DNA from: a virus
Taxonomy: Duplodnaviria > Heunggongvirae > Uroviricota > Caudoviricetes
Strand: one strand, 5' to 3'
DNA length: 8,598 nt
Virus record (IMG/VR): IMGVR_UViG_2671180828_000009
Numbering within the stretch: the stretch's first letter is position 1; each line of letters begins with the position of its first letter. Both the position numbers and the translations under genes were made by a program. Below the pieces are notes generated by a model. That model worked only from the letters and a program-made list of their open reading frames with translations, did no database searches and had not been told where the DNA came from. Below, one piece after another: positions 1 through 8,127 of the stretch.

Positions 1-51
1 CCATATGAAATCATAAGAAGAATCATGTTGATAATCATCACAACTTTTCAT
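1..51 (-). CDS. Tail fiber assembly chaperone, N-terminal fragment only (gene runs off the left edge)
   Basis: ATG at 51..49 on the minus strand, 5 nt after the H stop (TAA at 56..54), opens a frame (MKSCDDYQHDSSYDFIW...) that stays open to the window edge. Position matches P2 gene G downstream of H. AT-rich like the H 3' end. Only 17 codons visible. Confidence 0.35.
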   Translation of the reverse strand, partial: MKSCDDYQHDSSYDFIW

Positions 52-53
52 AT

Positions 54-1493
54 TTAATATCCAAATGCAATAAATACAGCGCCTGAAACTTTTGAATCAC
101 TGCTGGTTCCTGATGTCAAACAAGTTACAGCAGTAAACCCATCATTATATATACTTTCGCACGACGTAACGACTTGTGCATATGTCATTTTTGTGACAAA
201 CACACCCCATACTCCGTTAGGGAATGGCGTTGGATATGTAATAGGAAGCTGTTGTGGAATACCAATAGTTGTACTATTAGGAAGATTTCTTCGAAATATT
301 TGTATAATTAAACCATTCGGACCTTTAACCAACAAATTATCGCTTCCTTTTCCTGTTAGCTGAAAATAGCTCATGTCAGGGATTTCATAACTATTAGCAT
401 TACCAACATTTCTACCTGCCGCATTTCCCAAATGCCCTAAACCAAGATAAGTAAGAATTCCTTCTATATCCTTTCCACTCAAATTAGTCAGCGTATTATC
501 CAGCGGTTGTTTGCCTGCCAGCGCATTAAGCATTGTCGTGGCAAAGTTCGGGTCATTCCCCAGCGCCGCCGCCAGTTCGTTCAGTGTATCCAGTGCCGCA
601 GGTGCAGACCCCACCATTGCTGCAATTGCCGATTTCACAAAAGCTGTAGTGGCAATCTGTGTATTGTTGACCGACTGCGCCGCCGTGGGGGCTGTTGGCG
701 TTCCGGTGAGTGCCGGACTCGACAACGGTGCTTTTAGTGCCAGCACATTGTTAATGGTGGTACTGAAATTCGGATCATTGTTAATGGCTGCGGCTATTTC
801 TTTCAGCGTGTCCAGCGTGGCTGGCGCACCATTAATAAGGGCCGTCAGTGCCGCCTGAACAAACGCAGTGGTCGCAACCTGCGTGGTATTATTCCCCGCC
901 GCTGGCGTTGGCGCTTTGGGGGTTCCGGTAAACGTCGGACTTTCTTTGGGTGCATACTGTGAATGTGGGTCCTGTGCGGCAAGGTGTTTTGCCATCAGGT
1001 CATCCACATACACCTTCAGCTCCAGTACCTTGTCATCCACATACTTGCGGGTTGCCAGCACTACAGCAGGATCGATTTTCAGGGTGATATTTTCCGTGCT
1101 GCTGGTAATCAGCACCATGCGCACGGTCTGGGTGCGCCCGCTGCCTTCAGCCAGTTGCGGCTTATAGCTTTCCGGGCAGTTGCCCACGGCAATCAATGCC
1201 CCGGACTCATCAAACAGGCCCACTTCACGTATCCACCAACCTCCCTCGTTTTCAGGGATCACCTGTTCGGCAATAATCTGGCTGCTGTTCTGCGGGTCGA
1301 TATAGAGCATATTCAGCGCAGCCCGGCGTTTCTCATTTACCAGTGCCGTCTGCTTTGCGTCCGGCGTTGGCAATGTTCCGCCGCCATCGCCGACCGCCAT
1401 ATGGGTAATTTTTAAAGGCACACCGAGCGCGGCGGCGCTGGCAAGTTTCGCCGCGCCAATATCCGTCAGCAGGGTATAAAATTTTGTGCTCAT
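54..1493 (-). CDS. H: Tail fiber protein (P2 gpH-like), 479 aa, with a divergent C-terminal receptor-binding region
   Basis: N-terminus MSTKFYTLLTDIGAAKLASAAALGVPLKITHMAVGDGGG... resembles the recalled P2 gpH N-terminal domain. Internal motif ...NNTQIATTAFV...ALDTLNELAAALGNDPNFATTM.NALAGKQP is the conserved tail-fibre repeat seen in P2 H and lambda Stf. Position immediately after I in the late operon. Confidence 0.9.
   Translation of the reverse strand: MSTKFYTLLTDIGAAKLASAAALGVPLKITHMAVGDGGGTLPTPDAKQTALVNEKRRAALNMLYIDPQNSSQIIAEQVIPENEGGWWIREVGLFDESGALIAVGNCPESYKPQLAEGSGRTQTVRMVLITSSTENITLKIDPAVVLATRKYVDDKVLELKVYVDDLMAKHLAAQDPHSQYAPKESPTFTGTPKAPTPAAGNNTTQVATTAFVQAALTALINGAPATLDTLKEIAAAINNDPNFSTTINNVLALKAPLSSPALTGTPTAPTAAQSVNNTQIATTAFVKSAIAAMVGSAPAALDTLNELAAALGNDPNFATTMLNALAGKQPLDNTLTNLSGKDIEGILTYLGLGHLGNAAGRNVGNANSYEIPDMSYFQLTGKGSDNLLVKGPNGLIIQIFRRNLPNSTTIGIPQQLPITYPTPFPNGVWGVFVTKMTYAQVVTSCESIYNDGFTAVTCLTSGTSSDSKVSGAVFIAFGY
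501..941 (-). repeat. Two tandem copies of a ~73-codon tail-fibre repeat inside H (about nt 723..941 and 501..719)
   Basis: Residues 185-257 (SPTFTGTPKAPTPAAGNNTTQVATTAFVQAALTALINGAPATLDTLKEIAAAINNDPNFSTTINNVLALKAPL) and 259-331 (SPALTGTPTAPTAAQSVNNTQIATTAFVKSAIAAMVGSAPAALDTLNELAAALGNDPNFATTMLNALAGKQPL) align along their length with roughly 60% identity. Also visible as paired antisense ORF segments. Confidence 0.7.
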
Positions 1494-2095
1494 GGATTCA
1501 CTCTCATTGTGTCAATAACATGGACCGCCCCGCCTTCATGCGCGGTGCCGCCGGAAATAATTGTTTCGTTGATATACGGATAGATCGTGATTTCTTCACC
1601 AAGATAGCTGGCGGCTCCCACCCAATGCGGGCCGCTGGTCTGCAGATTGATGGACATGCCGATCATGTGACGGCTACATGGTTTGGCATCGCTTATCAGC
1701 CGCTCAAGCTCCAGATAGGTATCTTCAGTGATGCCCTGGTCCTGCACACCAATGTCCAGGCGAAACGTACCCGGTGTTTCTCCGGTCTGCCACCACTCAA
1801 TAATGCGGATCAGGAAGCCGAACGGCTCCACCACCCGCCGCACGGCACTGGTGGTTCCTTTATGCTGATGAATATAAAAAGCATCCTTCACCACCTGTCG
1901 TTTGACGCTTTCCGTCCAGCCCTCGTCCCAGCAATCCACAGAGAACGCCCAGGCGAGATAAGGCAGGAAACTGATCGGACAGGTCGTTGGATTCCACAAG
2001 TCACGCAGCGGCACCTGCAGATCAGAAATCCCGCTGCAGGTTTGCGCCAGTCGGCGCTCCAGTGGCGTTGAACCCGGTGGCAGCAGACTATTCAT
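1490..2095 (-). CDS. I: Baseplate assembly protein I (P2 gpI-like), 201 aa
   Basis: Motifs LPPGSTPLE, LWNPTTCP, LPYLAWAFSVDCWDEGW, GTFRLDIGV are characteristic of P2 gpI-family proteins. 4-nt ATGA overlap with the H start. Position between J and H. Confidence 0.85.
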   Translation of the reverse strand: MNSLLPPGSTPLERRLAQTCSGISDLQVPLRDLWNPTTCPISFLPYLAWAFSVDCWDEGWTESVKRQVVKDAFYIHQHKGTTSAVRRVVEPFGFLIRIIEWWQTGETPGTFRLDIGVQDQGITEDTYLELERLISDAKPCSRHMIGMSINLQTSGPHWVGAASYLGEEITIYPYINETIISGGTAHEGGAVHVIDTMRVNP

Positions 2096-2996
2096 CCGTT
2101 CCTCCGTTGGTTACGCTCCACTGCGTACATGATGCCGCCTGTGTTTTGTTCAGGACCACATCCGCCAGAGGAGAAGCCAGCTCCACACGCTGCACACCCT
2201 CAACATGCAGGGCGGCAAAGATGGCGCTACGGCGAATATCCCGACCAAGACGCGTCTGACTGGCGATGTACTTCTGCAGGCTGGCTTTTGCCGCTGCCAT
2301 TACCGGCTCTGCTTCCGGTCCCGGATAGAGAAAAATGGTGGCTTCCACGCGATACGGGATGATTTCTGCGCTGCGAACCGTCAGACGGTCAGCCACCGGG
2401 CGGACGTTCTCACTGTTCAGAGCTTTTTCCACCACGTCCAGCAGGTCTTTTTCTGCAGTTCCATCGCCTTCGCGGCTAAGGACAGTCAGCACCACCTCTG
2501 CAGGTGCCGGGCTGGTTGCACTGGCATCCGCCACCCGACCGTCGGCGCTTCGGGCATGAAATTCATAAGCTGCAGTTGGCCCCGCAACTGAAAGCCCTTC
2601 AAAGGCTGCAGGCACACGCAGGCGTAACGATTCATCGCTTTCCATCACAGCTGCAACGGGCGGCACAGCGTCATTATCAGCAGGCGTCACCGTCAGGCGT
2701 TTCACGTTGTAGTTGGCAGCGATTTGGTCCAGATCGCCGCCCATCGCATAAGCCACCATCACCGCCTGCGCGGCTTCGTTAATGCGCTGGCGCAGAAGCA
2801 ACTCACGGTAAGCGTTCTCCTGCAACAATTTGGTGACGGGTTCAGATTCCAGTTCCAGCGTGCGGATCACTGCTTCCTGCTCATCTTTCGGATGAAGCGC
2901 CACAAATTCGGCCTTGCGTTCGGCAAGCAGCGTCTCAAAGTCCGGCACATCCACAATCTGCGGCGCAGGCAACTGCGAAAGGTCAATCACTGCCAT
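2088..2996 (-). CDS. J: Baseplate assembly protein J (P2 gpJ-like), about 302 aa
   Basis: The ORF track opens at 3035, but the likely start is the ATG at 2996 (MAVIDLSQLPAPQIV...), giving the expected gpJ length. Position between W and I. Overlaps the W 3' end by 14 nt and the I start by 8 nt. Confidence 0.85.
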   Translation of the reverse strand: MAVIDLSQLPAPQIVDVPDFETLLAERKAEFVALHPKDEQEAVIRTLELESEPVTKLLQENAYRELLLRQRINEAAQAVMVAYAMGGDLDQIAANYNVKRLTVTPADNDAVPPVAAVMESDESLRLRVPAAFEGLSVAGPTAAYEFHARSADGRVADASATSPAPAEVVLTVLSREGDGTAEKDLLDVVEKALNSENVRPVADRLTVRSAEIIPYRVEATIFLYPGPEAEPVMAAAKASLQKYIASQTRLGRDIRRSAIFAALHVEGVQRVELASPLADVVLNKTQAASCTQWSVTNGGTDE

Positions 2997-3342
2997 TCTC
3001 TGCTCCTGTTGATACGGAAAGGGAAACAGGCACACCGCTATTACGCCGCCCGGTCAGCTCCACCACCATTGAACCGTCAAAATTACTGTTGATGGTGATG
3101 GAATCCAGCGTCAGCCGTGGCTCCCAGCGACTCAGCGCCACATACACTGCCGACATGACCTGCAGGCGTAACGCCGGATTTTGTGGCTGGTCTATCAGTG
3201 CCGACAGCAGGGAACCATATTCCCGGCGAGCAATGCGGCTACCCTGCGGCGTCAGCAAAATGTCCCGCACCGACTGGCGCAGATGGTCAATATCAGTAAT
3301 GGCTTTACCGCTGATATTGTTCATCCCGCTATAAAGCGTCAT
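2983..3342 (-). CDS. W: Baseplate wedge protein W (gp25-like), 119 aa
   Basis: Size and sequence (MTLYSGMN..., ...REYGSLL..IDQPQNPALRLQ...WEPR...) are consistent with P2 gpW. Start ATG overlaps the upstream stop as ATGA. Confidence 0.85.
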   Translation of the reverse strand: MTLYSGMNNISGKAITDIDHLRQSVRDILLTPQGSRIARREYGSLLSALIDQPQNPALRLQVMSAVYVALSRWEPRLTLDSITINSNFDGSMVVELTGRRNSGVPVSLSVSTGAENGSD

Positions 3343-3938
3343 ACCGGGCCTCCGGTTGTATCGCCGCCTTTCAGGACGCCAGTATGCTGATGCGCATCAA
3401 CCACGATCCCGTTAGAACTCATAGCTCCGCCGCCCTGGGTAAGGCACCAGGCCATCTCCCGCGCACGGCGGTTATCCAGCCCCTGATTAAAAACACCTTT
3501 CACATAAACCCAGCGCGGCAACTGTCGGCACGCATCCGCCCAGCGCCGCTGATTGAGCAATTTCACCAGCGTGGAGCTGCAGGCATTGCCTGTCCCCACG
3601 TTGAAGGCAAATGACACCACCGCGTCATACACTTTCTGCGGCGGCTGTTGCTTCACACACCTTTCCAGCGCCCGCTCCACACGCAGCACGTTGGAGATCA
3701 GCCCTTCCGCTGCCTGTCGTTCCGTAATGGTTTTGCCTGGAATGACACCAGATGTATTACCAATGCCGTCTGTCCAGACACCCGCGCTGCACTGATACGG
3801 CTGCAGACGACAGCCTTCGTAATCGGCAATCAGTTTCAGCCCCTCCACGGAGGTGTGAAGCTGCTGAAAACCCGGCAGCGTGGCAGCAATAGCCAGCACG
3901 GCTCCGACAAGGCAGCGTTTAACGATTGATGGATTCAT
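3339..3938 (-). CDS. SAR endolysin, T4-lysozyme (GH24) family, P1 Lyz-like, with a ~30 aa C-terminal extension
   Basis: Weakly hydrophobic Gly/Ala-rich N-terminus MNPSIVKRCLVGAVLAIAATLPG followed by ...YEGCRLQPYQCSAGVWTDGIGNT..., which closely matches the recalled P1 Lyz catalytic region (EGCRRDPYMCPAGVWTDGIGNT). Start chosen at the in-frame ATG 3938 because GGGAGGA sits immediately upstream; the ORF track opens at 3965. Confidence 0.8.
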   Translation of the reverse strand: MNPSIVKRCLVGAVLAIAATLPGFQQLHTSVEGLKLIADYEGCRLQPYQCSAGVWTDGIGNTSGVIPGKTITERQAAEGLISNVLRVERALERCVKQQPPQKVYDAVVSFAFNVGTGNACSSTLVKLLNQRRWADACRQLPRWVYVKGVFNQGLDNRRAREMAWCLTQGGGAMSSNGIVVDAHQHTGVLKGGDTTGGPV

Positions 3939-4134
3939 AGTCCTCCCGCGAGATCTGCCCGTCACGCAGAAGCTGGTAGGCTTTGTGTTTGTAGTACCAG
4001 TTGATAGCCAGCATCAGCACACCAATCATCAGGCCGCCCAGCGTTGAGGCATCCTTGATGGACAAATCGCCCAGCCAGGCCAGCACGACGGCGATGCAAT
4101 ACGTGATAAAGGCGCTGATTCGCTCAAGCGTCAT
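3919..4134 (-). CDS. Class II holin (possible pinholin), 71 aa
   Basis: Two predicted transmembrane helices (ISAFITYCIAVVLAWLG and LGGLMIGVLMLAINWYY) followed by a charged C-terminal tail. Sits immediately upstream of, and overlapping, the SAR endolysin gene. Confidence 0.6.
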   Translation of the reverse strand: MTLERISAFITYCIAVVLAWLGDLSIKDASTLGGLMIGVLMLAINWYYKHKAYQLLRDGQISREDYESINR

Positions 4135-4137
4135 AAT

Positions 4138-4341
4138 TCAGTCCCATAGCTGGACGGTCTGCACGGTGGTGGTTGTCGGTATGTCCGGCAGCTCCACCTG
4201 CAACCCGTGAGGTAAAAAGGGGCCGTATTCGGCAAGCCCCGGATTTGCCTTCAGTACCTGCTCCGTGACACCCTGCGTGCGCCCGTAATGACGCCAGCAA
4301 AGCGCGTCCACCGTGTCATACTGATGCGCACGCACTTTCAT
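4138..4341 (-). CDS. X: Tail protein X (P2 gpX-like), 67 aa
   Basis: MKVRAHQYDTVDALCWRHYGRTQGVTEQVLKANPGLAEYGPFLPHGLQVELPD closely resembles recalled P2 gpX. Exact expected size and position after L. Confidence 0.85.
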   Translation of the reverse strand: MKVRAHQYDTVDALCWRHYGRTQGVTEQVLKANPGLAEYGPFLPHGLQVELPDIPTTTTVQTVQLWD

Positions 4342-4805
4342 CAGATAAGCTCCACTGTGCAGTGCGGCGCATCCTGTACCCGGCTGATGGCCCAGCGGGC
4401 GTCACGCCACAAATCACCGCTGGCTTCTGCCAGTTCCTCGCCTCGCTTCACACCCGATGCCGTGGCGTCATAGTCCTGGTATCGTTCGTTGAGCATGGCG
4501 CGTGCCCAACAATAAACCGCGTTGAAATAGTGCTGAATGCGCTCACTTTTGCCGTCCAGCTGTTCCGCCGGGACTTCTGCCAGCGACACATACCCCAGCA
4601 TCTGCTGACGTCTGCGAAACTCATACAGCTCTGCGTTGACCTCCGAAATTGCCGACAGAGCAACCTGCTTTAAACGCGGCTGCGTCACCGTGCCGTCAGT
4701 GCGCATGACACTGCGAAACTCCGACAGGTCCACATCAGGCCAGAACGGCGTATTTCTGATGATTTCCGCCTGTTCCGGTGCCTGTTCTGGCGCAACAAAC
4801 TTCAT
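4341..4805 (-). CDS. L: Head completion/stabilisation protein L (P2 gpL-like), about 154 aa
   Basis: Start assigned to ATG 4805 (MKFVAPEQ...) preceded by AGGAGA; the ORF track opens further upstream at 4868 inside a GC-rich hairpin. Position immediately before X. Confidence 0.8.
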   Translation of the reverse strand: MKFVAPEQAPEQAEIIRNTPFWPDVDLSEFRSVMRTDGTVTQPRLKQVALSAISEVNAELYEFRRRQQMLGYVSLAEVPAEQLDGKSERIQHYFNAVYCWARAMLNERYQDYDATASGVKRGEELAEASGDLWRDARWAISRVQDAPHCTVELI

Positions 4806-4818
4806 GCTGCTTTCTCCT

Positions 4819-4880
4819 GAAATAAAGGGCGGTGGACGGGGTTTTGATGTGGCAGTGCCTTTCGCCACCCCGTGCCGCCC
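4819..4880 (-). terminator. Candidate intrinsic terminator or structured element between the N remnant and L
   Basis: GC-rich imperfect stem (gggcgg..acgggg at 4828-4842 pairing with ccccgt.ccgccc at 4868-4880, ~25-nt loop) followed on the transcribed strand by CTTTATTTC just upstream of the L ribosome-binding site. Confidence 0.3.
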
Positions 4881-4900
4881 GTGCGCGGGGGCACGTTCTG

Positions 4901-5614
4901 TCAGCGGCTGTCATTGCGCAGTCTGCGCTCCAGCTGCTGTTTGTCTTTTTTCACGCCACAGCGGGGATCGAGCTGTAACGCATGGTTGAGATGATTAAGG
5001 GCAGACGCCGGATTCCCGACTTTCACTGCGCCCGGTGTGGTTTCACCGCCCGTGGTGGTGCTGCCCATGACGTGATCCGGTGCATCCTCACGGATTTTCT
5101 GCAGCCAGCCTTTGTTCACATCCTGCAGCAGCGGGTTTTCGCTACGGTTGGAGGTTTTCGCACGCTTCACGCCGTTAAAGCCGATCATGATGCGGTCCAG
5201 TGCCTGACGTTTCACGATGGCGTTACGGATACGCACCTGGAAATCCTGAAACTTCGCCCACAGGTCCAGCTTCGCGTAGGTCAGCACCGTGTCAAAGTTG
5301 GTCTGCTCGCATTTGTATTCCACATCGACCATCAGCGTCGGATCGACAGGCTCACGCTCTTTCGCGGTGGTGTCAGTGGTTCCGGCAATGGTGCTGCCAA
5401 CACCCAGCCCCAGCAACTGACCAGACTGCTCAGTCACTGGCGTGACGTTAATCAGCGTCAGGAATGCGGCGGACTGCTGGATCTGGTCTTCCAGCGTCTG
5501 CTGTACAGACGGCTCCACGGTGAACTTGCTGGACAGTTCTTCAACTGCCACACCGTTCAGACGCGCCAGCTGCTGCAGGTAAGCGTTAAAAGCAAAGCGG
5601 GTATTCTTCTTCAT
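4901..5614 (-). pseudogene. N: Major capsid protein N, 3'-truncated (237 codons versus about 350 expected)
   Basis: N-terminal ~205 aa (MKKNTRFAFNAYL...KFTVEPSV...LDLWAKFQDFQVRIRNAIVKRQALDRIMIGFNGVKRA...) look like a P2 N-family capsid protein. It follows O as expected, but the ORF is about 120 codons short, has a basic non-capsid-like tail (KKDKQQLERRLRNDSR), and no M gene lies between it and L. Confidence 0.7.
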
Positions 5615-5630
5615 CAGGTTTTGTGCTCCA

Positions 5631-6464
5631 TCAGCAATTGGTCAGAGTGTCAGCGGGGGCGTTACCGCCTGTTGCACGCTGGCGGTAGTCCTGGCGGCTG
5701 TCTTCATGGCTCAGCTTGTCCACCAGTTCGTTAAAGGCGGTCAGCTGTGCCTGCAGGGCTGTCTCCAGCTCAGACAGGCGTTCTTCCTGTTCAGACAGGG
5801 ATTTTTCGGTGCGCGCACTCAGGTTTTGCTGCTCAGTGGCGACCAGCTCCACGGCCTTATGCACATCAGAGAACCGGGCATCGTCGGACTGCTCTTTTTT
5901 GGTAAACAGCGCCGTGACACGGGCAAACAGGGACGGCTTGTCCTCCTGGATTTCTTCCAGTTCGATCACTGTTTCCTCTGCGGCGGTAAAGAGATTGGCG
6001 GGATTCTGCTTGCGGTTTGCCAGTGGGTTATGGGCTGCACTGGCGCTGAATGTCAGCATTTCAGTGCCCAGACTGGCAGGGTCATCAGTGGCAGCCAGGC
6101 CGACCAGGTAGGCTTTGCCCGTATCAGCGAACTTCGGGCTGACTTCCATAGAGGTGAATAATTTCTGGCCTTTTTTCACCAGTTCCACCAGGGACTCCGT
6201 TGGCTCAACGTCGGCATACAGCGCCATCTTGCCTGCCAGCGGACCTTCCGTGATTTCTTCAGCAAACAGCGCCGTCACCTTGCCGTAGCGGTTAAAGGTG
6301 CTGTCCGGCAGATAAGACTTGATGTGCTCAAGGTTAATCAGCGCGGTATACACCGCCGGGTTGTAGCTGGCTGCCATCTGTTCCAGCCATTCTCGCTGGA
6401 TTTCGCGTCCGTCGGTGGTGGCACCTTCCACCCCGATGCGAAAACGCTTTGCTTTCACTGTCAT
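5631..6464 (-). CDS. O: Capsid scaffolding protein O (P2 gpO-like), 277 aa
   Basis: ...FRIGVEG..DGR...INLEH...YG.V..L.AE...; ...AYLVGLAATDDPASLGTE... and C-terminal ...ATGG....D.LTNC match recalled gpO. GGAG 8 nt upstream of the ATG. Divergent from P. Confidence 0.85.
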   Translation of the reverse strand: MTVKAKRFRIGVEGATTDGREIQREWLEQMAASYNPAVYTALINLEHIKSYLPDSTFNRYGKVTALFAEEITEGPLAGKMALYADVEPTESLVELVKKGQKLFTSMEVSPKFADTGKAYLVGLAATDDPASLGTEMLTFSASAAHNPLANRKQNPANLFTAAEETVIELEEIQEDKPSLFARVTALFTKKEQSDDARFSDVHKAVELVATEQQNLSARTEKSLSEQEERLSELETALQAQLTAFNELVDKLSHEDSRQDYRQRATGGNAPADTLTNC

Positions 6465-6542
6465 GAGCCGTGCTCCGTTAGAAAAAACTTACTGGAGCCT
6501 TATGGTTGCGGTGATGGGGGCAGTGAAACAATGCGCGGTATT

Positions 6543-6560
6543 TGTACCGACAACCACACA
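6543..6560. promoter_or_regulatory. TGT-N12-ACA dyad, candidate Ogr/Delta-type late-promoter activator site (most plausibly for the O operon)
   Basis: TGTaccgacaaccacACA at 6543..6560 in the 142-bp O/P divergent intergenic region. P2-family late promoters carry this dyad centred near -55. The spacing puts a minus-strand transcription start about 30 nt upstream of the O ATG. Confidence 0.4.
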
Positions 6561-6606
6561 AACCGCAGGCGGGGAAAGCCTTCATTCAAGGCTGTAGGTT
6601 TGTGCC

Positions 6607-7578
6607 ATGAACACCACACTGACACCCGCAGATCTCGATCCCCGTCGGCAGGCCATGCTGCTGTACTTTCAGGGATACCGCGTAGCCCGCATTGCTGAAA
6701 TGCTGGGCGAGAAAGTTGCAACCGTTCACAGCTGGAAAAAACGCGACAAGTGGGGTGACTATGGGCCGCTGGATCAGATGCAGCTCACCACCGCCGCACG
6801 CTACTGCCAGCTCATCATGAAGGAGCACAAAGAAGGGAAAGATTTCAAAGAGATTGACCTGCTGGCGCGCCAGTCTGAGCGCCACGCGCGGATCGGCAAG
6901 TTTAACAATGGCGGCAACGAATCCGACTTAAACCCTAACGTCGCCAACCGCAACAAAGGCCCACGCCGTCAGCCGGAAAAGAATGTTTTCACCGATGAGC
7001 AGATTGAGAAGCTGGAAGAAATCTTCCATTCCTCCATGTTCAACTACCAGCGCCACTGGTGGGAAGCCGGAAAAACCAACCGCATCCGCAACCTGCTGAA
7101 GTCACGCCAGATCGGCGCGACCTTTTACTTTGCCCGTGAAGCCCTGATTGACGCCCTGCTGACCGGACGTAACCAGATTTTCCTTTCCGCCAGCAAGGCA
7201 CAGGCCCACGTCTTTAAGCAGTACATCATCGACTTCGCCAAAGAAGTGGAGGTGGAGTTGAAAGGCGATCCGATGGTGCTTCCTAACGGGGCCACGCTTT
7301 ACTTCCTCGGCACCAATGCCCGCACTGCCCAGAGTTATCACGGCAACCTGTATCTGGATGAATATTTCTGGATACCGAAATTCCAGGAGCTGCGCAAAGT
7401 GGCTTCCGGTATGGCTATTCACAAGAAATGGCGACAAACCTATTTTTCCACGCCATCCAGCCTGACACACAGTGCTTATCCGTTCTGGTCCGGTGCGCTA
7501 TTCAACCGTGGGCGCAACAAAGCCGATACCGCACCTGCAGCAACACGCCCGATCTCTGCGGTTGCACTCATGACGTAA
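6607..7578 (+). pseudogene. P: Terminase large subunit P, truncated (323 codons versus about 590 expected)
   Basis: N-terminal region (...[17 protein letters not shown]...[10 protein letters not shown]..., ...[17 protein letters not shown]...) is consistent with the P2 gpP N-terminal and ATPase region. The frame ends in a non-terminase-like tail overlapping the convergent cII-like gene. No portal gene Q follows. Confidence 0.75.
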
Positions 7579-7868
7579 TGTGGCAGTTTCTCTTTTGCCA
7601 CCTCATTAATTGGTACGCATGGCAGGCAGTGAATCTGTGCCAGAAAACCATCTACCAACGTTGAATCTTCAGTCAGATCGGTAAGCAGCCAGATTTCTGG
7701 TGCGGTTAATAAATGAGGTTGAGCTGGGTTCAGCTTGTTCCGCAGAATCTGCACATTCATGCCCGCACGTTCTGCCAGTTGCACCAGATTGTGGCGCAGT
7801 GCGAATGCACGACAGGCTTCATCAAAATGTGGATGTTTGGAAACTTGGTAATCAAACATGGTTTTCAA
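7476..7868 (-). CDS. cII: Phage CII-like regulatory protein (186 CII / CP76 family), probably 3'-truncated
   Basis: [45 protein letters not shown]...[25 protein letters not shown] matches the recalled CP76/CII family N-terminal region. The real start may be M4 at 7859. 130 aa versus about 165-170 for family members. Confidence 0.65.
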
Positions 7869-7873
7869 CTCCG

Positions 7874-7915
7874 AACTTATCGCAAAATCGAACTCAGCGT
7901 CTTATTGCGAAAATA
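7874..7915. promoter_or_regulatory. Paired repeats in the apl-cII intergenic region
   Basis: CTTATCGCAAAAT (7875-7887) and CTTATTGCGAAAAT (7901-7914) form a direct repeat about 26 bp apart; they contain the inverted hexamers TCGCAA / TTGCGA. Confidence 0.25.
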
Positions 7916-7923
7916 GACGTCTA

Positions 7924-8127
7924 TTAAGCAGACAAAGCATCAACAGTCAGAGCAGCCAGGTTAATCATTACCTTTTCACGTTTTTTGTCTTTACGAAGAC
8001 GATGACGAGGTAGTCGGCCATCAGCCAACATGTCGTTAATCGTATCAATAGAAAGGCCAGTCAGTTCGCTATAACGTTCGATTGTGACATGTGGTGTATT
8101 CAGAGTAATTGAAATGTTAGGTGTCAT
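7924..8127 (-). CDS. Small helix-turn-helix DNA-binding protein, Apl/Cox-like excisionase-regulator, 67 aa
   Basis: ...[27 protein letters not shown]... is an excisionase-type HTH. First gene of the leftward operon, divergent from cI and upstream of cII, as apl is in 186. Confidence 0.5.

Follow-up and report, generated by a model that had tools for sequence, protein, structure and literature searches.

The closest described relatives of the element analysed here are the Klebsiella phage 4LV2017 (Peduoviridae, Elveevirus; NC_047818.1) and the P2-like prophages of E. coli CFT073 and E. coli strain 1283. In 4LV2017 the annotation lists O, N (352 aa), M (216 aa) and L. The capsid protein gpN of P2 (PDB 7jw1) has the HK97 fold, and its residues 183–224 form the "sir loop", which starts where helix α4 of the P-domain ends and leads into the A-domain (PMC7552001). 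Defective enterobacterial prophages, also referred to as "grounded" or cryptic, decay by deletion (PMC6379469).

We analysed a stretch of 8,598 nucleotides (IMG/VR record IMGVR_UViG_2671180828_000009), in the following called the window, which is the whole contig CDQN01000172.1 of assembly GCA_000938575.1. The element to which it belongs has the gene order O-N-M-L-X-Y-K in common with the three relatives named above, shows 96–98% DNA identity to them and shares with them a spacer of 95 bp between M and L. In the window N and M are joined to a single ORF. With a probability of about 0.9 we regard this ORF as an ordinary result of the decay of a P2-like (Peduoviridae) E. coli prophage by microhomology-mediated deletions.

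Anatomy of the chimeric ORF

On its minus strand the window carries H (54–1493), I, J, W, a lysozyme ORF with a gpV "Apex" tail, Y, X, L, the chimeric ORF and O. A truncated gene P for the large terminase (6607–7578) is located on the plus strand, followed by a truncated CII gene (7476–7868, minus strand), a 67-aa gene and the start of cI. The original prediction had described a capsid-like ORF of 237 codons behind O, then 95 bp and then L, and both the ORF list and the Pfam matches agree with this arrangement. The intact scaffold/protease gene O (5631–6464, minus strand; 277 aa, matching positions 2–268 of 268 of PF05929) lies immediately upstream of the ORF (4901–5614, minus strand). The intact head completion gene L (4341–4805, minus strand; 154 aa, matching PF05926 over its full length and as long as in annotated relatives) comes after it, beyond the 95-bp gap.

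The ORF list, the match to PF05125, protein comparison and tblastn together define two parts of the ORF, designated N'::'M. Residues 1–200 (codons at 5015–5614, minus strand) correspond to residues 1–200 of the major capsid protein gpN, and all 200 are identical to those of 4LV2017. Residues 201–237 (NPASALNHLNHALQLDPRCGVKKDKQQLERRLRNDSR) correspond to residues 180–216 of the small terminase gpM, encoded together with the stop codon at 4901–5014 on the minus strand, and are identical to M of 4LV2017 and of CFT073 in 37 of 37 positions. This tail is read in the frame of M, and the stop codon at 4901–4903 is M's own. N is thus cut after codon 200 of 352 and codons 1–179 of M are gone, just as a truncated N and a missing M had been proposed, and the basic C-terminus had rightly been suspected to come from a fusion to the 3′ end of M. 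M has 216 aa in this phage lineage and not about 250 aa.

The P2-family capsid profile PF05125 recognizes the chimera with 264.5 bits (cut-off 27; E = 1.7e-78), but the match covers only model positions 1–189 of 327. The chimera therefore belongs to the family by its profile score and falls short of a full-length capsid fold (about 327 model positions; 352–357 aa). An alignment to P2 gpN (chain 7jw1_A) likewise does not run from end to end but covers residues 1 to about 202–204 of 357 (E = 2.2e-68). According to this comparison the N part is a capsid fragment and not a functional member of the P2-family capsid proteins. From full-length gpM the chimera holds residues 180–216 only, and no Pfam small-terminase match was obtained on it. 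A tblastn search with N and M of CFT073 revealed no further pieces of N and no M homolog elsewhere, neither in the window nor in the whole 20.7-kb element described below.

A strong match to a capsid family would also be expected for a naturally short capsid variant or a satellite-type capsid gene that never underwent a deletion. However, the match is restricted to the first 189 model positions, the DNA to either side of the clean 999-bp gap is collinear with intact phages at 97–98% identity, and the tail is the C-terminus of M and no novel domain. We consider the probability of a naturally short gene to be practically negligible. Judged from its sequence, the ORF at 4901–5614 is an in-frame capsid/small-terminase chimera left by a deletion in a decaying P2-like prophage. 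The appropriate label is capsid/small-terminase fusion pseudogene instead of "major capsid protein", and the element should be annotated as a defective prophage. Beyond annotation the fusion is of little consequence.

Deletion breakpoints and junction

The window aligns to 4LV2017 (L001) in three collinear blocks, which join window positions 429–3449 to phage positions 300–3321, 3445–5014 to 5646–7215, and 5013–7528 to 8213–10728. Between the second and the third block phage positions 7216–8212 are missing, which together with the 2-nt overlap of the blocks gives a loss of exactly 999 bp, in line with the roughly 1 kb that had been estimated. The deletion removed N codons 201–352, the 3-bp gap between N and M, and M codons 1–179, all of which are kept in the intact relatives. 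A megablast search of phage records yielded intact relatives of about 97.7% identity, in which 3300 bases correspond to 2301 bases of the window. As 999 is divisible by three, the 5′ part of N continues in frame into the 3′ end of M.

The junction was located at 5013–5014 by the overlap of the blastn pieces and by a three-way sequence comparison. The N side and the M side have only two nucleotides in common there, TT on the plus strand and AA on the minus (coding) strand. E. coli Z1323PEC0014 shows 100% identity to the N side from 5013 upward, and NZ_CP019257.1 shows the same identity to the M side as far as 5014. GTGAAAG, a direct repeat of 7 nt, is present near both breakpoints and was considered as the site of crossover. 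It was rejected, since the product retains the N sequence TCGGG past the repeat, so that the crossover lies outside the repeat, at the AA dinucleotide. The 15-nt overlap of the BLAST pieces seen with CFT073 is due to gapped extension through GTGAAAG. We propose that one spontaneous event of illegitimate recombination with 2-nt microhomology deleted the 999 bp; it would have resulted in a 237-aa chimera, in which the 5′ part of N runs into M and ends at the stop codon of M.

An artefact of assembly or amplification would produce a similar picture, the genome having intact N and M genes and the contig representing a mis-join. Indeed, the source is a fragmented short-read draft, and two contigs of GCA_000938575.1 (8598 and 5616 bp) are identical over the region, which indicates some redundancy in this assembly. 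Nevertheless, the two sides of the junction share only 2 nt, far below any assembler k-mer, so that a mis-join driven by a repeat is not possible. Moreover, the identical fusion gene occurs in independent assemblies, including a contig of 56.9 kb seen in 4 samples, and no contig with the missing N/M segment was found from the carrier assemblies. An artefact is thus highly improbable, and a genuine deletion in the prophage is the reading with which we continue.

The complete element and its insertion site

The full element is contained in a 20.7-kb locus (L005) from the 56.9-kb contig of SRR12495213. The left flank consists of ybjG-mdfA-ybjH-ybjI-ybjJ-rcdA. The element begins with int, a ydcA-like gene, cI, the 67-aa gene, CII', P', O, N'::'M, L, X and Y, continues with K'::'V, W, J, I, H, G, an acyltransferase gene, FI, FII'::'D and ogr, and is followed by ybjL. 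Intact prophages are integrated at the same site, between rcdA and ybjL, in CFT073 and in E. coli strain 1283. Positions 1–8090 of the locus, comprising the chromosomal flank and the region from int over cI to CII', are 100% identical to strain 1283 (L012), which identifies the host as E. coli.

The identity to strain 1283 changes in a step exactly at the P/CII junction. Over the late genes (8087–14395) it is 97–98%, and no other intact relative that was found comes closer than this. This suggests that the late region stems from a different P2-like phage, by mosaicism or by a deletion across tandem lysogens, and not from simple decay of a prophage of the strain 1283 type.

The locus represents phage DNA at a chromosomal att site that has an integrase and has lost essential genes, and thus has the properties of a defective (cryptic) prophage. 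An intact P2-like prophage would have a complete Q-P-O-N-M-L region; here the portal gene Q is missing, P is truncated, and N is fused to M. Altogether the element has lost A/B, Q and cos along with lysA/B/C, R, S, E, T and U; half of P and of N is missing, most of M and of V, and a third of D. The losses include most of the tail genes. From these gene losses we infer that the element produces no virions. The remaining genes contain neither frameshifts nor stop codons.

Location at a phage att site, retention of int and cI, internal deletions with microhomologies of 1–5 nt, loss of genes for replication, packaging and the head, and further erosion in a sister strain are features shared with cryptic enterobacterial prophages. 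The element does not differ from these qualitatively and is very young. A literature search for this specific remnant yielded nothing beyond general references.

The acyltransferase gene (Acyl_transf_3; 16024–17055) lies on the opposite strand between G (tail-fibre assembly) and FI (sheath), as it does in CFT073 (L011; 17560–18591). It is probably a moron for the modification of surface polysaccharides, if its domain is a guide to its function, and was kept in the remnant.

Further deletions in the element

Mapping of the full element against CFT073 revealed four deletions, one of them that at N::M, which keeps N(1–200) and M(180–216). The three others account together for about 16–17 kb, and about half of the phage of approximately 33 kb is missing from the element.

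The endolysin fusion K::V (3339–3938, minus strand, junction at 3445–3449; identified by Pfam and alignment to 4LV2017) keeps K(1–166), out of 170 residues, and V(159–192), joined in frame at a 5-nt microhomology (CACCA). Here 2329 bp were lost, with lysA, lysB/C, R, S and most of V. The fusion gene retains a complete lysozyme Pfam domain, and the holin gene upstream of it (3919–4134) is intact. On the basis of these domains, the holin and endolysin may still work as a pair even without spanins.

At the P/CII joint (7525–7528) the large terminase gene P (6607–7578, plus strand) is cut after codon 307 of 588 and the CII gene (7476–7868, minus strand) after residue 112 of 169. P(1–307) and CII(1–112) are joined tail to tail, so that a reading frame across the joint is not applicable, and each of the two ORFs continues for 16–17 codons into the antisense of the other. 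This deletion, with a 4-nt microhomology, comprised about 9.6–10.3 kb and removed Q, cos, the cargo genes and the replication genes. The fourth deletion (about 4.4 kb, 1-nt microhomology, in frame) generated a fusion of the tail tube gene FII to gene D at 18451–19719 of the 20.7-kb locus. It encodes 422 aa with FII(1–159), out of 171 residues, and gpD(103–366); E, E', the tape measure gene T and U were lost.

All three joins between genes of the same strand in the 20.7-kb locus are in frame. A role of selection in this pattern was considered and rejected. If the out-of-frame O/J joint of the further eroded relative described below is counted as well, three of four are in frame, which is expected by chance with p of about 0.11, so that the pattern carries no weight.

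Distribution and age

A 231-nt probe spanning the N::M junction was matched contiguously in none of 5,426 complete E. coli genomes and in no plasmid or phage record; its matches were split between intact N and intact M only. An exact 28-mer across the junction gave 0 matches in GTDB, which holds one genome per species and is blind to strain-level variation within E. coli. An exact-protein look-up placed the same fusion protein on 11 contigs, which belong to two NCBI assemblies and to several assemblies of Logan runs, the sources of the gene being GCA_000938575.1 (two contigs), GCA_000939695.1 and the Logan assemblies of ERR738832, ERR738837 and SRR12495213. In addition, two IMG/VR entries encode it and match parts of the window with 100% identity. 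All copies of the chimera that were found are identical. The junction is absent from the complete genomes and present on contigs of several assemblies; it is thus real and specific for a lineage, and its absence from complete E. coli genomes, plasmids, phages and GTDB representatives marks it as a young allele restricted to that lineage.

The two contigs of GCA_000938575.1, CDQN01000172.1 and CDQN01000811.1 (L009, equivalent to window 1382–6997), are 100% identical over 5.6 kb including two deletion junctions. They reflect either redundancy of the assembly or a remnant that is present twice in one genome.

Compared to 4LV2017 the chimera has 10 nucleotide differences, 8 in the N part and 2 in the M part, all of which are synonymous. 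The M part differs in 2–3 nt from M of 4LV2017 and CFT073, again by synonymous changes only. These differences arose in functional phages. It follows that the deletion is recent and that no decay took place afterwards.

A search with the FII::D junction led to a second remnant, IMGVR_UViG_2541047837_000006 (L013), which is 99.9–100% identical to the 20.7-kb locus and carries two extra deletions. The first one (10035–10036), a loss of 3.8 kb, begins inside J and ends inside O; the resulting joint is out of frame, with O ending in FADRKQSR and a stop codon. Removed by it are L, X, Y, W, K::V and the N::M chimera. The second one (11317–11322) shortens the P/CII joint by 111 bp and occurred between the imperfect repeats CCGGTA and CCGATA. 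Since this remnant is more eroded, erosion is an ongoing and stepwise process, and the chimera is dispensable. The remnants provide a clean and datable example of the stepwise deletional erosion of a P2-like prophage, from the intact form (strain 1283, same site) over the form with four deletions (window) to the form with six deletions. The series could serve for studies of decay rates of prophages and of microhomology-mediated deletion.

Predicted structure and function of the chimera

According to the domain map of P2 gpN (PMC7552001) the N part of the chimera ends within the sir loop, ahead of the A-domain. By alignment to 7jw1 the chimera retains the N-arm, the E-loop and the region of the spine helix and is without the A-domain and the C-terminal strands of the P-domain. 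About 150 residues of gpN are thus gone, and 37 residues of another protein stand in their place. With these parts and nearly all of the small terminase lost, the chimera is not expected to build capsids or to package DNA. Most likely it is a recent, non-functional relic and one step in a serial deletional decay.

The chimera could still be transcribed and translated, as its ORF is intact and located downstream of an apparently intact O gene and P–O intergenic region, and as ogr is kept in the full element. Expression of this kind would be a prerequisite for a domesticated interference module, in which the Ogr protein of a superinfecting P2-like phage induces the late operon of the remnant. 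The chimera would then poison capsid assembly through the N-arm, E-loop and spine helix, which make contacts between subunits, and the holin together with K::V would cause premature lysis. The uninterrupted ORFs of the chimera, O, L, X and Y, the complete lysozyme domain of K::V, the conservation of the P–O intergenic region (about 97.7% identity to intact phages), the retention of ogr and the three in-frame deletions of the element are all compatible with such a module. Nevertheless, the chimera, L, X, Y and K::V are all gone from the second remnant, which so gives no sign of selective retention, the in-frame count becomes three of four with its O/J joint (p about 0.11), and the junction does not occur in 5,426 complete E. 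coli genomes. The intact frames are accounted for by recency, with synonymous differences only and a flank that is 100% identical to strain 1283. Domestication is thus very unlikely. This also applies to the specific form in which the chimera, holin and K::V would be expressed from a retained Ogr-dependent late promoter upon P2-like superinfection and would serve as an abortive-infection module or a dominant-negative poison of the capsid; if true, the module would protect the lineage that carries the remnant. The relic of a decaying prophage therefore remains the preferred reading of the chimera.

The M–L spacer and neighbouring regions

The 95 bp between the chimera and L (4806–4900, minus strand) had been described as a GC-rich, structured spacer. 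The first attribute holds, with a G+C content of 64% versus 54% for the window. The second does not: the minimum free energy of −34.8 kcal/mol is reached by 12 of 200 shuffled sequences and corresponds to z = −1.59, which is not significant. The predicted fold comprises a hairpin, followed by UUUAUUU and by the ribosome-binding site AGGAG of L. The ATG of L at 4805 is located 8 nt past AGGAG, and L comprises 465 nt in annotated relatives. No Rfam family was detected in the whole window at the gathering threshold, and the spacer is therefore not a known RNA. A terminator scan did not flag the spacer, the loop being too large for the pattern.

A gap of 95 bp between M and L is also present in 4LV2017, CE10, CFT073 and strain 1283, and 112 of the 115 columns of the alignment do not vary. 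The spacer is the native M–L intergenic region and unrelated to the deletion. It is more conserved among the relatives than the flanking coding DNA (96–98%), and a role as a conserved attenuator or as a processing site in P2-like late operons is conceivable.

The 67-aa ORF at 7924–8127 (minus strand) occupies the position of Cox/Apl between CII and cI and has no Pfam match. At the opposite end of the window, over positions 1–450, the G+C content drops to 35–38% in the 3′ end of the tail-fibre gene H, which encodes a gp53-like C-terminal domain. This segment differs from 4LV2017, to which homology begins at 429, but matches CFT073. By this pattern of similarity the 3′ end of H is a typical swapped receptor-binding tip.
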